From a virus: a stretch of DNA of 64,000 nt. Shown here piece after piece: positions 5,204-10,832 of the stretch (positions within the stretch are counted from its first letter, which is position 1; each line of letters begins with the position of its first letter). The notes under the pieces were generated by a model that saw only the letters and a program-made list of their open reading frames with translations, did not search any database and had not been told where the DNA came from. Where the stretch lies: positions 37,306 to 101,305 of IMG/VR virus record IMGVR_UViG_3300032783_000063; one strand, written 5' to 3'. Position numbers and translations under genes: made by a program.

Positions 5204-5538
5204 CCCGTAGCTAGCACCGGCTTGTCGAACGCCCGCACCTTCCCGTGCCAGGACTCGACCATGTCGAGGATGATCCTGGCCTCGGATACGTCCACCCGCA
5301 GGCTGCGGCGTTCACCGTGGCGGGCGCGGTCCATGACTGCCAGCAGCCTGTCCGTTGCGGCGGTCAGCTGGCTGGCCAGGTCCTCACCGCACGCCGGGTC
5401 GGATGTCGGCCAGTGGTCGCACTCGTCGGCGACGAAGTAGCCTTCCGGAGCGAGACCCGGGCTGGGCTCGAGGTGGACTGGGCGGCCTTCCTGCCAGTCC
5501 CTGAGACAGGCGGGGCACATCAGCTCGGGTTTTGTCAT
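5200..5538 (-). CDS. hypothetical protein
   Basis: MTKPELMCPAC...; start overlaps upstream stop. Confidence 0.5.
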   Translation of the reverse strand: MTKPELMCPACLRDWQEGRPVHLEPSPGLAPEGYFVADECDHWPTSDPACGEDLASQLTAATDRLLAVMDRARHGERRSLRVDVSEARIILDMVESWHGKVRAFDKPVLATG

Positions 5539-6228: not shown

Positions 6229-6444
6229 TCACCCAGGCGGCGGCGCGTACGGGTCGACGGTCTGCTGCGGCAGCGCCGGCGCCCCCGAGAACGACGGCGC
6301 CGGGCCGTTGTACCCGCCCCCGCCGTCGGGTACATCCGGGGAGTCCTCGTGCACACGGCTGCACGAGCGCGCCGACGACACCGGGACGCCGACGAACACG
6401 ATCGCAGCCGCCAGGACTGACGCTAACCGCCGCCACTTCACCAT
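6229..6444 (-). CDS. small secreted/lipoprotein peptide
   Basis: Basic + hydrophobic N-terminus then Cys; paralogous to 6476-6613. Confidence 0.5.
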   Translation of the reverse strand: MVKWRRLASVLAAAIVFVGVPVSSARSCSRVHEDSPDVPDGGGGYNGPAPSFSGAPALPQQTVDPYAPPPG

Positions 6445-6475
6445 TCCACCACCTATCTACCCGGATTGATCAAGG

Positions 6476-6613
6476 TTAGCCGTTGACGTCGCCGCCGCCA
6501 GTTTCGCCGGACGACGGGTGCTTGTGCGCCGGCCAGCAGCCGCTGACCGCCACCGGGACGCCGGCGAACATAATCGCAGCCAGCAGGATCGCAGCCGCCC
6601 GCCGTTTCTTCAT
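6476..6613 (-). CDS. small lipoprotein peptide (45 aa)
   Basis: MKKRRAAAILLAAIMFAGVPVAVSGC, lipobox-like. Confidence 0.5.
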   Translation of the reverse strand: MKKRRAAAILLAAIMFAGVPVAVSGCWPAHKHPSSGETGGGDVNG

Positions 6614-6851
6614 TCCACCGCCTACGGGATGATCGGGCCGGTTGTCATGGGCGTCGGCGCTGTCGGGTCGCCGTTCCGGCACACCGTGTCGCATCCCTTG
6701 CTAAGGGTTCGCAGGCCGGGCCCCCACGGGCTCCCGTATCTCCTGCGCTTCGATGACCGTTTGCGCCACGGCCTAAGGTCAAGGATAGTAAGGAACACTA
6801 TCACGCTCGACCACGCGAAGGCCCCGTGCTTATACTTGCCATGTCACACAC

Positions 6852-8102
6852 TCAAGCAGCACCATAGGTAATGAATCCACCTGGTGATGGTTTATGTGAA
6901 TCACACCATTTCCCGCCTGCGTATAGTCGTGGCGGCTGAGTGCAGTCAGGCACTATGCAACCTGTCACCTGCAGCACTGGCTCGGCGTTCTCCTGCCGCA
7001 TGTTCTCGACCAGATTGAGATCGCAGATCCAGCAAAGCTGTCCAGGACCTGGACTGCGGTTACCGCGTCCCGTTTTGTGGTCGTGCGGGTTAGCCGTACG
7101 CCAGCGATCTAGTTCCGCCAGCGCCACGGGATCGGGTTCCCCAGGGCGCATGTCACACAGGCATGGGATGTGACCATGATAGCGACATCGGCCAGACTTA
7201 TACCGTTGGGTTCGTTTCGTCTGAAACGCGCTACCAGGCATCCATGTGCCTTGACCATCAGTCAGATGCTGGTAACGCTCAAAGCAAGACGAATGAACTA
7301 GGTAAGCGTGGCCGTCCCAACTGCGCAGCGGAACGATCTCGCCGGCTGGCACGCCGACGACGACATCATCGACAGACAATCCCAGGGCGGGCGTGAGGAC
7401 TGGATGCTCGCGACCGCAGGGACGTCGACTGCCGTCTGGGCAGCGGGGCAGCAAGTTGTCGAAGGTCGCGCACTTGCGGGCTTCGACAACTCTGAGGCCG
7501 GTCGCTGTGACCGCGCGGCGTGGCGGTACACCTTCGCTGAAGATCCTCGGATTGTTGCAGCCCAAAGCTGGTACGGAGTCAAGCATCCGAGGCCGTGGGC
7601 CCCAGTCGTTGAACCACGCTGGAAGATACCCGGCAGCGTAGTACGTTTTAGTTCGATTGTTGATCTTTCTGGAATGTTGCTCGTATCGCTGGATTTCGAT
7701 GTCCGTTGGCACGACGCATCCTGTGATCGCCACATCGAGAACGCCTCCGTCGACCACAACCTCCTGGCCAACGGTCATCCCGGCGTCTTGCGGCGGCCGA
7801 GCACAGTAGTCCTGCTCATTCTGATGTTCAGCGCTCTTCCTGCTGATCTCATGATCATCGTCGTGCCGGTCGTGGCCTTCCCCCGCGAAGTGCCGCGCAA
7901 AGTATTTCTCCGGTGCGCTGGATGTGGCTTGCCGTCGAACGACGTGCATCGCCCCGTCCCCACCATGCTCTAAGCAGAGCAGAACTCGATCATCGCGCTT
8001 GATCTCGTTGTGCAGACTGGTGATAACCCGGTAATCCGCGCCGGACAGCTTGCCGAGATCCAGGTCGCGATGTTCAGGGACATAATGTACACGGCCGGTC
8101 AT
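6852..8102 (-). CDS. CoiA-like PD-(D/E)XK nuclease-domain protein
   Basis: N-terminal C/H Zn site (LLCLEH...FARHF...SAEH), E-V...D...DIEIQR nuclease motif; lower GC than flanks. Confidence 0.65.
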   Translation of the reverse strand: MTGRVHYVPEHRDLDLGKLSGADYRVITSLHNEIKRDDRVLLCLEHGGDGAMHVVRRQATSSAPEKYFARHFAGEGHDRHDDDHEISRKSAEHQNEQDYCARPPQDAGMTVGQEVVVDGGVLDVAITGCVVPTDIEIQRYEQHSRKINNRTKTYYAAGYLPAWFNDWGPRPRMLDSVPALGCNNPRIFSEGVPPRRAVTATGLRVVEARKCATFDNLLPRCPDGSRRPCGREHPVLTPALGLSVDDVVVGVPAGEIVPLRSWDGHAYLVHSSCFERYQHLTDGQGTWMPGSAFQTKRTQRYKSGRCRYHGHIPCLCDMRPGEPDPVALAELDRWRTANPHDHKTGRGNRSPGPGQLCWICDLNLVENMRQENAEPVLQVTGCIVPDCTQPPRLYAGGKWCDSHKPSPGGFITYGAA

Positions 8103-8358
8103 TGGACACCTTCACGAAGTCATGGATATGCATGACCTCAGGGTATACGGACCCTCGGACACTCTGATGTCACGGACGCGCGGCCCTTGACACGCAGTCC
8201 AGGGACAACGGGACATCGCGCCTGCCGTGGCCGTCGCTGGCGGAGGATGAGCTGGCGCGGTTCGCGGCGAAGCGGCTGTCCGAGGAGATGGCTGAACGGC
8301 AGCGGCAGGGCCAGGCCGCCAGGGCCAGGGCTGTGGCCGGGGACTCTGGTGATGCGGC

Positions 8359-8706
8359 GTGAGAACCGACCTGCGTATCGCCTGCGACCGTTGCGGCATC
8401 GACGCCCCGGACATGCCCGACGTTCTGCGCTGGCTGATCAGCGATGAGGCCGGTGGCGGTGTCCCCGCTGTCTGCCCGGCTTGCCAGACCCTGGCTGAGA
8501 GGGGTCTTGTCGCAGCGGCTCACGAGGGGCTCCGGTGGATTCATGACAACGCTGGTGTAGGCGGTCCGGGGACGATGTTCCTGGATTACGTGTCCTGTGT
8601 CGGTGACCAGCTGGTTCGCCGTCGTCATCGCCGGGGTGACCATTCCCGGTGTTACGCGGACGACGGCTGCCGTTCTGCGGGGGCGCGTGTGTTACCGCCG
8701 GGGTGA
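8359..8706 (+). CDS. hypothetical protein with two CxxC motifs
   Basis: CDRC...CPAC; C-terminus doubtful. Confidence 0.4.
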   Translation: MRTDLRIACDRCGIDAPDMPDVLRWLISDEAGGGVPAVCPACQTLAERGLVAAAHEGLRWIHDNAGVGGPGTMFLDYVSCVGDQLVRRRHRRGDHSRCYADDGCRSAGARVLPPG

Positions 8707-8912
8707 CCCCGGATATGCGGAACGGCCGGGGTTACCACGCCCGGCCGCCCGCCAAACCAGCCCGGCTCCCTCAACAGAGCCGTCCAACAGCACCGGATCC
8801 CCACCGTCAAGAGAGGCCCAGATATGGAAAGAGTACCGGAAGAGGCCGACAGAACCACTGCTCCCCGGCCGGCTGCGTCCCGGCTGCATCGCATCAGCAA
8901 AGGCCGGTGGGG

Positions 8913-9297
8913 GTCGCACCTCTCGCACCCGCTCCGCGCTGGCTCGGGTCAGAGGAGGCGTCGCACCTCTCCCGCCCGCGCCGCAGGGCCCTGGCCTCGG
9001 GCGCTGTGCTCGGCGCGGGGGGCGCGGGAGGACCCGGACCGACCACAATGTCCGCCGATGAGTCGCACCTCACGCGGCACCAACTGCCCGGCCCCAGTGC
9101 AAACCAGTGTCACACCTCCCCGACCGCGAGGCCCGGCAGAGGGCCTACAGCAGCACGCATGGCCACCGCCACCCGGACCACACAGCGCTGCTGGCGCCAG
9201 CTCGAACAGGCCGGCTGGCTGTCACCGGCCCTCCGGCTCCATCCCGCCCTGAGACTTCGCGGCCGCTGAGGAGCCTCATGCCCTCATGTCGCCCCTC
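8913..9297 (-). repeat. cluster of short repeats GAGGTGCGAC (minus strand) downstream of tnpB
   Basis: Plus-strand GTCGCACCTC exact at 8913, 8960, 9062; one mismatch at 9109 and 9288. Confidence 0.75.
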
Positions 9298-10832
9298 TGA
9301 GCGGTCAGGCAGCCTTGCGTACGGGCCCGCCGTCTGCGGCGGTGCTTACGTGTGCGCGGCGGCCCCAGGCCCCAGGCAGACGGCACCAGCGCGCCAGACG
9401 GCTCCGCGGCGCTCGGGAGTCGCGCGGCCTCTATGGAGTTAGGAGAGTTCACGGGCTGCTCCCTGACGGGTTGGCATATCTCCCGTGCTGCCACCGTTTG
9501 CGCCACGGCGGTAAAGCGATCCTTAATGTTACCTGCTGCGATTATGTCGGCGTGCCCTGACAATCCGCATCCGACACATTGGAACACGGCCCGGCTCGGC
9601 CGGTTCGCTGCGTCGACCAGCCCGCAACCGGGACACGTCTGCGACGTGTGCGGGGCCGGGACTTTCACCAGGGTCGTCTTGTAGGCAACGAACTGCTGGA
9701 GCTGATACCAGTTCCCGGCGAGGATCTCTCGGTTCAGCCCCGTCTTCTGTTTCACGTTCCGGCCCGGGGCGTCTTCGGTGCCTTTCGCTGATGCGGTCAT
9801 GGCGGACACGTCCAGGTTCTCCATCACCACGGTCGCGTATCTGGCCGCCAGCGCCCTGGAGGCCAGGTGAGCGCCTGCGGTGCGCTGCCTGGTCTCATGC
9901 TGCATCAGCTTCAGGTGCGCCATCTTGTCCCGCAGATACCTGCGCGAATGCTTCCAGCAATCACAATCGTGACCATCAGCGCCTGGCGGGGGGCAGTAGC
10001 CACGGAGCAGATGCGCGCGCCCATTCCGCTGGGTCCAGGTGTCGTGCCGACACGGGTTCAGCCGCCGTTTGCGGGCCATCGCAACCTGCAGCCGCCGTTT
10101 CCGCTCCTGCTGACCAGCAGACAAGCCAGGTGCGTCGTATGTTTCGCCATCCGACGTCATCGCCGTCACCGTCACGCCACGATCCACGCCCACCACCCCG
10201 GACGTCGCAGGCTGCCGCACCTCTGCAGTGTCATATTGGACAGTCGCCCAGTACCGGCCTGTGTCATCCACTCGCAGCGACGCGAACCCCACCAGCGTGT
10301 CCTCGGGCAGCACCCGGTGATAGCGGATCTTCACCAGGCCGATCGCACCGGGCACCTTCAACATGGCCCGGCCAGGACGGCCCGGCCGGATAACACCCGG
10401 CAGCGGACACCGCACCGAGCCCTCCTGCGTCTGCCAGTACAACGACCCGCCCTTATGAACCGACCGGAACCGAGGCGGACTGGACGGCTTGCCTTCCTTC
10501 AGCATCGTGAAATGCCGCGTCCACGACGCCGACAACTGCCGCAGGGCACCATGCAGCATCACCGACGGCACTATGGTGAATGGGTGGGTCTGGCCGTGAT
10601 GCCGAAACTCGCACCCCGCCTTGCGTGCTACCGACACCGCATAGCTGAGGCTCATGCACGACTCGACCCCGGCGTGATGCTTCCACCGGTCCAGCTGCGA
10701 CGCCACAGCCTCATTGAAGAACGCCGTCACCCCGGCGCGCTGCAAGGCGAATGTCTCAGCCTGGGCGGGCGATAACTCGGCGGCGTACACCTGGGCGCGC
10801 TTGTAACGCACCGGGACAACTAGCTGAGACAT
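9276..10832 (-). CDS. tnpB: TnpB-family RNA-guided endonuclease (IS200/IS605-type), no tnpA
   Basis: RuvC-I VGVDRG, RuvC-II VMENL, Zn finger TSQTCPGCG...FQCVGCG, RuvC-III HADIIAAGNI; all three acidic residues intact. Confidence 0.93.
   Translation of the reverse strand: MSQLVVPVRYKRAQVYAAELSPAQAETFALQRAGVTAFFNEAVASQLDRWKHHAGVESCMSLSYAVSVARKAGCEFRHHGQTHPFTIVPSVMLHGALRQLSASWTRHFTMLKEGKPSSPPRFRSVHKGGSLYWQTQEGSVRCPLPGVIRPGRPGRAMLKVPGAIGLVKIRYHRVLPEDTLVGFASLRVDDTGRYWATVQYDTAEVRQPATSGVVGVDRGVTVTAMTSDGETYDAPGLSAGQQERKRRLQVAMARKRRLNPCRHDTWTQRNGRAHLLRGYCPPPGADGHDCDCWKHSRRYLRDKMAHLKLMQHETRQRTAGAHLASRALAARYATVVMENLDVSAMTASAKGTEDAPGRNVKQKTGLNREILAGNWYQLQQFVAYKTTLVKVPAPHTSQTCPGCGLVDAANRPSRAVFQCVGCGLSGHADIIAAGNIKDRFTAVAQTVAAREICQPVREQPVNSPNSIEAARLPSAAEPSGALVPSAWGLGPPRTRKHRRRRRARTQGCLTAQRGDMRA

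Follow-up and report, generated by a model that had tools for sequence, protein, structure and literature searches.

The DNA stretch analysed here, called the window, is 64,000 nt long and corresponds to bases 37306-101305 of the 101,305-bp IMG/VR virus record IMGVR_UViG_3300032783_000063, which has direct terminal repeats (DTR) and a CheckV completeness of 100%. Since tape measure, DnaB-like helicase and methyltransferase genes are present in it, the record is that of a tailed phage, from soil or wetland and with an actinophage-like genome. The locus in question comprises a gene for a miniature RuvC nuclease (the effector), five copies of a 10-mer, termed R1 to R5, which begin at the 3′ end of this gene and continue into the stretch behind it, and a predicted compact guide-RNA gene that stands alone farther downstream. 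The features are listed in Table 1.

Table 1. Features of the effector locus and of the stand-alone RNA gene, in window coordinates. ORF, open reading frame; MFE, minimum free energy; GC, guanine plus cytosine.
Feature	Position	Strand	Evidence
Effector gene, 518 aa, Cas12n/V-U4-like miniature RuvC nuclease	9276..10832	-	domain, profile and fold searches
Predicted ORF-embedded guide-RNA scaffold core (stem A and composite stem B), codons ~439-466	9436..9516	-	covariance model R1, 95 bits, E ~1e-20
Predicted 5′ strand of helix C (CUCUCC), anti-repeat to the 5-7 nt before GUGCGAC in the units	9442..9447	-	pairing table
R1, positional homologue of the relatives' first 36-nt repeat, ends in GAGGGGCGAC	9288..9322	-	alignment A2
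Stretch holding R2-R5, ~630 nt, most likely non-coding, between the effector and the next gene	8644..9275		no GC periodicity, no domain matches, not kept in relatives
R2, GAGGTGTGAC, one mismatch, GUGUGAC; the preceding GGGGAG can pair with CUCUCC	9109..9118	-	motif search, pairing table
R3, exact 10-mer, GUGAG before the motif	9062..9071	-	motif search, pairing table
R4, exact 12-mer GAGAGGTGCGAC	8960..8971	-	motif search, R4/R5 repeat, pairing table
R5, exact 12-mer GAGAGGTGCGAC	8913..8924	-	motif search, R4/R5 repeat, pairing table, fold
Predicted gene for a compact stand-alone guide RNA, with stems A and B, helix C in cis (CCCUU-AGC-AAGGG), AUGCGAC	6688..6778	-	covariance model R1, 68.8 bits, E ~1e-14; MFE fold

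An earlier, sequence-only reading had placed five 10-mer sites downstream of a "solo TnpB", and both the sites and their spacings (179, 47, 102 and 47 nt) are borne out. The exact 10-mer GAGGTGCGAC occurs at 8913, 8960 and 9062, always on the minus strand and downstream of the ORF 9276-10832(-), which lies on the same strand; the copies with one mismatch, at 9109 and 9288, are also on the effector's strand. The motif had not been noticed elsewhere in the window; exact copies are confined to these three places in the whole record, and the remaining one-mismatch matches in the window are scattered and at chance expectation. Under a first-order Markov model 0.59 exact copies are expected genome-wide, and the genome-wide probability of at least three on one strand within 160 nt is ~3e-8, which argues against a chance cluster unrelated to the nuclease. 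[quoted passage not shown] We therefore regard DNA sites and chance, taken together, as very improbable explanations.

The conserved part of each unit is only ~12 nt. Across the four downstream 10-mers 39 of 40 positions are kept, and the adjoining 26 nt are unrecognisable. That the sequences between the copies are unrelated is correct in so far as the 5′ parts of the units show no significant likeness, with the exception of R4 and R5, whose identity is 86% over a stretch of 28 nt. The invariant parts of R3-R5 are perfect, and R1 has GGCGAC instead of UGCGAC. R1 overlaps the 3′ end of the ORF, whose reading frame continues across the unit to a stop codon 12 nt further on. A regular CRISPR array, that is, at least three direct repeats of 23-55 nt with regular unique spacers of similar length, as in repeat-finder or Tandem Repeats Finder-type criteria, is absent from the window, where only 10-12 nt (28 nt in R4/R5) repeat.

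The possibility that the region is protein-coding had also been raised. In 8644-9275 the GC content by codon position is flat, ~0.7/0.7/0.7, which sets the stretch apart from the adjacent genes (0.65/0.51/0.78 in the effector core); the ORFs of this stretch have no Pfam or PHROGs match and no Rfam family is found in it. A consensus scan returned no promoter or terminator matches. The stretch is thus most likely non-coding.

The effector protein matches the Pfam zinc-finger domain Cas12f1-like_TNB (3.9e-14). Its best PADLOC defence-model match is Cas12u4 at 9e-43 (9e-43 to 6e-51 in all, for a model that has no curated cut-off), which scores about level with the generic NCBIfam model guided_TnpB (136.9 bits, above its cut-off). 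By sequence, the closest Protein Data Bank (PDB) entry is RdCas12n, 9J09, in an alignment that covers only residues 307-438 of the C-terminal half (E 2.8e-16). The RuvC residues D217, E338 and D429 and the zinc-finger cysteines C400, C403, C419 and C422 (CxxC...CxxC) are intact and invariant in the family alignment A1. [quoted passage not shown] Tail residues 444-518 are below pLDDT 50 and predicted to be disordered. Neither a Y1 transposase (PF01797) nor a serine recombinase (PF00239) nor Cas1 is encoded in the 101-kb genome, in which the effector gene is single-copy, and the protein is therefore best regarded as a domesticated Cas12n/V-U4-like effector, not a transposon TnpB.

About 50 homologues of 500-590 aa, all metagenomic, form a tight clade (E values to 1e-269), with a gap to ordinary TnpBs at ~1e-41. 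A peptide-pattern scan of 185,579 species genomes revealed no family member, and a single-protein viral scan no relatives. We examined the loci of one viral and 13 metagenomic relatives. At 60-64% protein identity, the loci L003, L011/L012, L007 and L008 have a regular CRISPR array downstream of the effector, unlike the window. Their 36-nt repeats are spaced 72-74 nt and end in the same 10-mer (AAGGTGCGAC in L007), and the unique spacers are mostly 30-38 nt long, with a few shorter ones. There are seven repeats in L011/L012, four in L007 and at least two before the contig end in L008. L003 is a complete 210-kb phage with 22 repeats of 36 nt ending in GAGGTGCGAC, with near variants in the degenerate distal repeats; its spacers are mostly unique and 30-38 nt long, and remnants of 10-20 nt are found as well. 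The effector of L003 adjoins the portal, prohead protease and capsid genes and no Cas1 is present; an array beside those genes is also seen in L018. The first repeat begins inside the last codons of the effector gene, the TGA of the repeat serves as the stop codon and the C-terminus ...SPGNGA is encoded by the repeat (for example in L003). R1 occupies this place in the window, although the similarity of its 5′ part to the relatives' first repeat is weak. The sequence-only reading had taken the copies for scaffold 3′ ends, and the same end is indeed the 3′ terminus of real CRISPR repeats in the relatives.

The closest relatives of the window effector, L004 (81% identity) and L005/L006/L016 (68%), share the layout of the window, with short repeat ends, irregular spacing and unrelated sequence in between; L004 has three exact and three near copies of GAGATGCGAC. 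In L009 the array is lost and a single repeat end follows the stop codon. Neither the downstream sequences, including those between the repeats, nor the flanking genes are conserved between any of the loci. As the stretch is moreover most likely non-coding, two of the three conditions that the sequence-only reading had named as speaking against its idea do not apply. Among proteins 47-81% identical to the window effector, four states are thus found: one end only (L009), 12-nt ends in irregular clusters (the window, L004 and L005/L006/L016), a 22-repeat array (L003) and stand-alone RNAs (the window, L004, L006, L014 and the 210-kb phage genome G001). In a quick tree, with Shimodaira-Hasegawa-like approximate likelihood ratio (SH-aLRT) support only and a midpoint root, the subclade of the window lies inside the family, beside the array-bearing clade. 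The tree makes a reduced array at least as likely as a nascent one, and the direction implied by a "proto-CRISPR" stage is not upheld.

The guide-RNA scaffold is predicted in the tail codons of the effector gene. Its core starts 10 codons after the last RuvC Asp, within the codons of the disordered tail, whose DNA is conserved far beyond the need of such a tail. When 12 copies are aligned, two hairpins are supported, namely stem A and a stem B of three parts; 12 of the 19 pairs show compensatory changes and 97.3% of the cells are paired. None of 500 shuffles matches the covariation score, the percentage paired or the number of compensatory pairs, and 16 of 500 match the measure of further pair types; when the partners are slid by 1-3 columns, pairing drops to 33-48%. 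In the 101-kb genome the covariance model R1, which was derived from these 12 copies, has exactly two matches, the ORF copy and the stand-alone copy (6696-6778). The same tail sequence seems to serve both peptide and RNA. At the protein level, the motif L-I/V-P-x-x-W-G, followed by an R/K-rich run, is kept family-wide in the tail in A1 (window 9279-9512, codons 441-518).

No clear anti-repeat had been seen in the sequence-only reading, and here the result differs: one lies after the second scaffold hairpin and covaries between lineages. The compact stand-alone RNAs reveal it as part of a third helix, which we call C. The 5 nt that follow the AA behind stem B pair with the 5 nt preceding (G/A)UGCGAC, to give 5-7 bp, and a loop of 3-5 nt caps this helix where the RNA stands alone. 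Its versions are CUCGC:GCGAG in the array-bearing loci and L014, CUCUC:GAGAG in the window and L004, CCCUU:AAGGG in the window's stand-alone RNA and CCCGC:GCGGG in that of the 210-kb phage. In the ORF-embedded form the two strands are 170-260 nt apart, separated by the rest of the tail codons, or stand on separate array units. The conserved 12-mer is therefore the part of the repeat that would touch the scaffold, which explains why GAGAGGTGCGAC is kept in R4 and R5 and the rest is not alike. With the scaffold CUCUCCU, R4 can form 6 bp and a possible G-U pair (two further G precede; the seventh pair is read from the sequence), R2 6 bp, R5 5 bp and R3 4 bp. A 28-bp pairing of R4 with 9392-9427 (z -2.1) was not significant after multiple tests and was dropped.

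The CCTC...GAGG hairpins that had been described for at least three copies are confirmed only in part. The GAGG of the motif does pair with an upstream CCUC-type stretch when the units are folded, but the energies are no better than those of shuffles (z -0.6 to -1.6, in DNA of 67-78% GC). This bears on the idea that the units are regulatory hairpins or decoys, which show or hide the handle and could titrate the scaffold or the effector, determine where the first guide ends on its 3′ side or make the transcript more stable. Every unit can indeed form a hairpin whose 3′ arm contains the 10-mer, and R5, with CCUCCUC upstream, mimics helix C in cis. Given the fold energies, however, and given that in the relatives the homologous motifs simply end CRISPR repeats, with spacers behind them, we consider a purely regulatory role improbable. 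In the 47-nt R4-R5 unit a stem like helix C and an inner hairpin leave GCGAC single-stranded. This fold resembles the 3′ module of a scaffold from which stems A and B are missing (compare the 3′ part of the L004 stand-alone RNA), and some units may accordingly be duplicates of such a module and not pairs of repeat and spacer. A degenerate full scaffold before each of R2-R5 was rejected, as the covariance model finds no match there even with filters off.

The stand-alone gene, absent from the sequence-only reading, lies 2.2 kb past R5 on the same strand and was first detected as a weak DNA self-match. Its stem B contains the compensatory pairing CGCAGG/CCUGCG, the RNA ends in GGGATGCGAC and the candidate guide would run from 6687 downward. 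Stand-alone copies are also found upstream of the effector, in divergent orientation, in L004, L005/L006/L016 and L014. In the 210-kb phage such a scaffold (L147:1501-1572, that is, G001:169580-169651; 45 bits) is 74 kb away from the effector. These copies are all compact, with (G/A)UGCGAC as their end and behind it a sequence that differs from copy to copy, and the L004 RNA carries the same variant as the GAGATGCGAC units of that locus. The gene is not the tail of a dead effector gene: the sequence upstream has no effector similarity, and in L004 there is no room for the ORF.

Several side observations concern these RNAs. The window gene sits between a 416-aa ORF and small secreted-looking ORFs, with a TACTAT box just upstream; the scaffold of the 210-kb phage has a TATATT box upstream, and its helix C (CCCGC/GCGGG) is compensatory. 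Two small adjacent ORFs directly follow the window's RNA (window 6400-6650, minus strand) and have similar signal-peptide- or lipoprotein-like starts (MKKRRAAAILLAA..., ...WRRLASVLAAAIVF...). In L010 (contig WNGK01316797.1) the homologous effector ORF has a 90-nt in-frame insertion (L010:1893-1982), in the Cys/His-rich loop before CWKHS, which is a compact scaffold-like element with 61 bits to covariance model R1 and ends in GGGATGCGAC. This sequence suggests that scaffold cassettes can move or be copied.

Covariation shows the scaffold and helix C, and the motif is homologous to the ends of CRISPR repeats. Judging from sequence comparison, we suggest that the copies of the 10-mer repeat the 3′ handle of a guide RNA, namely that of a Cas12n-like (type V-N/V-U4-like) nuclease which the phage encodes and which has no transposase. 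That these copies make up a functional multi-guide locus has, in our estimate, a probability of about 0.5. We favour this reading because the relatives' 36-nt repeats end in the same 10-mer and start in the last codons of the effector, and because short irregular repeat ends recur in the two other lineages of the subclade. We infer transcription, processing, assembly in trans and targets as follows. Read-through transcription from the effector gene would give a precursor carrying R2-R5. In each unit the handle would consist of 5-7 nt that pair with the CUCUCC behind stem B and of the invariant GUGCGAC, with the guide directly after it. The ORF-embedded scaffold would serve R2-R5 in trans, as the trans-activating CRISPR RNA (tracrRNA) of Cas12n does for its CRISPR RNAs (crRNAs), and the nuclease would presumably carry a number of different guides, to which the stand-alone gene would add a further one in single-chain form. 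These guides may be directed at rival mobile elements (phages or plasmids) or at the host.

Several observations weigh against such a multi-guide function. The spacing is irregular, and with a unit length of 36 nt two of the "spacers" would come to only ~11 nt; the folds of the units partly sequester the handle; the pairing in trans is short, 5-7 bp (4 bp in R3); R1 and R2 are mismatched within the otherwise invariant part; and a global RNA duplex search for the anti-repeat was uninformative, with z near 0. The subclade is also nested beside the array-bearing clade, and its units may be leftovers of a regular array.

It is quite possible, if short of even odds, that R2-R5 are a decaying regular array, or by-products of 3′-module duplication, and give no guides at all, the working RNA then being that of 6688-6778, perhaps together with the ORF scaffold and R1. 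The irregular spacing and truncated spacers fit decay, and L003 also has spacer remnants and degenerate distal repeats; but neutral decay should hit all positions alike, and the contrast between the 10-mers and their unrecognisable flanks does not have this form. The nested position of the subclade and L009, which has kept one repeat end, likewise point to reduction. The same pattern is present, however, in three lineages, each with its own variants, and the part retained is exactly the one that contacts the scaffold. A complete compact guide RNA is present elsewhere in the genome, and the R4-R5 unit has the look of a scaffold's 3′ module that lacks stems A and B; against decay, 630 nt of non-coding DNA are retained in a compact phage genome. 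A further-reaching form of the multi-guide reading, which we hold to be rather doubtful, is that the 12-nt units are working minimal crRNA handles joined to the ORF scaffold by the 5-7-bp helix alone, with new units arising without Cas1-Cas2, through duplication of 3′ modules or insertion of compact scaffold-guide cassettes like those that are scattered over the genomes and, in one case, lie within an effector ORF.

The search for targets gave no convincing protospacers, either for the window's candidate guides or for the relatives' spacers, in the phage genome, in all the loci and in GenBank phages, nor did two 18-mers searched against IMG/VR; with no protospacers found, a protospacer adjacent motif (PAM) cannot be inferred. 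Several spacers of the relatives' arrays are near-perfect hairpins (L007:4616-4759; L003:4937-4972 and 5404-5441), with stems of 5-6 bp and loops of 6 nt and, in one case, a 38-nt palindrome, which is unusual for spacers that originate from random protospacers.

Cas12n nucleases use a 5′-AAN PAM and perform RNA-guided cleavage of double-stranded DNA as monomers. The system of the window is most similar to these enzymes (type V-N, formerly V-U4/C2c9; RdCas12n, AcCas12n): a protein of ~500-560 aa with intact RuvC and zinc finger, no adaptation genes, disordered-tail codons that hold the tracrRNA or scaffold ~10 codons past the last RuvC Asp, and, in the relatives, an array directly downstream. 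The C-terminal tail of Cas12n is disordered and dispensable and its coding sequence holds the tracrRNA (PMC12216341; bioRxiv 10.64898/2026.03.27.714800); PDB 9J09 is the RdCas12n structure (PMC12216341). Unlike Cas12n, the window has minimal repeat ends of 12 nt and a stand-alone single-guide RNA gene instead of a regular array, and its clade is seen only in metagenomic and phage contigs.

TnpB-ωRNA systems of IS200/IS605 and IS607 (ISDra2 TnpB, PDB 8H1J) share with the window the fold, as the top structural match, and the guided_TnpB score over the cut-off. They also share a scaffold that overlaps the 3′ end of the ORF with the guide directly after it, and L009 has one such end. The window effector differs from them in being single-copy, without TnpA and without conserved element ends, with flanks that differ in every relative, and in its length, which is greater by ~100 aa, with the tail and an additional Cys/His insertion. 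TranC systems, described as transposon-CRISPR intermediates (Jin et al., Cell 2025, as cited in PMC13565253), are similar in concept: the ωRNA is split into a tracr-like scaffold and crRNA-like units, and single-chain and split guides serve one TnpB-like effector. The window genome encodes both forms as well, the stand-alone single-chain RNA and the ORF scaffold with separate repeat ends. However, LaTranC is distant from the window effector (E ~1e-8 by sequence, 1e-11 by Foldseek), and TranC arrays are regular, with repeats of 32-38 nt.

Phage-encoded miniature Cas12s (the Cas12p "hacker", CasPhi/Cas12j and CauTranC9) resemble the system in combining a small type V effector with an array, in lacking Cas1 and in their presumed role against rivals. 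Of the repeat, no more than 10 nt are visible with the guide in the structure of Cas12p, which is some precedent for a short handle; these proteins belong, however, to other families (Foldseek 4e-9 to 2e-7) and have regular arrays. Finally, irregular ωRNA-like arrays with a sharp scaffold-guide boundary were found in a survey of TnpB and Cas12, where serial duplication of ωRNA was proposed (PMC10691335). The sharp junction and the irregular spacing are those of the window, but the repeats of these arrays exceed 60 bp and stand beside inactivated TnpBs, whereas the repeat of the window is ~12 nt and its nuclease is intact.

The literature thus already describes Cas12n with its disordered tail and a tracrRNA inside the ORF, downstream arrays unaccompanied by Cas1, arrays that arose from ωRNA more than once, TranC and phage miniature Cas12s. 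In a limited literature search we found no description of the phage- and metagenome-only lineage of the window, of irregular clusters of minimal 12-nt repeat ends as a subclade trait, or of dispersed stand-alone natural single-guide RNA genes near to or far from the effector.

A few observations concern the surroundings of the locus and look-alikes of its repeats. DNA similarity searches against phage and plasmid collections gave nothing relevant. Contigs from three wetland DNA runs, which may be the source sample, are identical across 6600-9508, and no array polymorphism is seen in them over this range. The effector gene (window 9430-10800) splits the assemblies of these runs at ~9508 and ~9795, and short contigs that are 85-90% alike overlap it in the same runs; because of these breaks and overlaps we conclude that several diverged members of the effector family co-occur in the same wetland samples. 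One stray contig has a further stand-alone scaffold with a different guide. Pairs of 10-mers at a distance of 36-66 nt were also sought by pattern. Apart from the L003 contig, the viral matches were a reversed type I-C array, coding tandem repeats or chance, and most of those in genomes belonged to type I-C arrays or were isolated pairs due to chance; L024 looks similar but has no TnpB-like gene and was set aside. Read as its reverse complement (GTCGCACCTC), the 10-mer is the sequence with which type I-C CRISPR repeats usually begin at their 5′ end, and an AT-rich phage contig (L017:1300-1800, IMGVR_UViG_2585427655_000001) carries a 5-repeat array of I-C type. With only ~11 nt shared with the repeats of the effector family, we take the likeness as coincidence.

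The origin of arrays from the single guide of TnpB has so far been argued mostly via distant comparisons, and here the states stand within one family. If the reading with minimal crRNA handles is true, the phage clade would be a living series in which ωRNA, single-guide RNA genes of natural origin, mini-arrays and complete CRISPR arrays change into one another. Since the minimal RNA contacts can be read by covariation, the split of ωRNA into crRNA and tracrRNA becomes testable with few constructs. A very short natural handle, a natural single-guide scaffold of ~90 nt and a nuclease core of ~440 aa may also be of interest for compact editors. For phage biology, the finding would mean a guide system without Cas1, spread over several loci, on tailed actinophage-like genomes.

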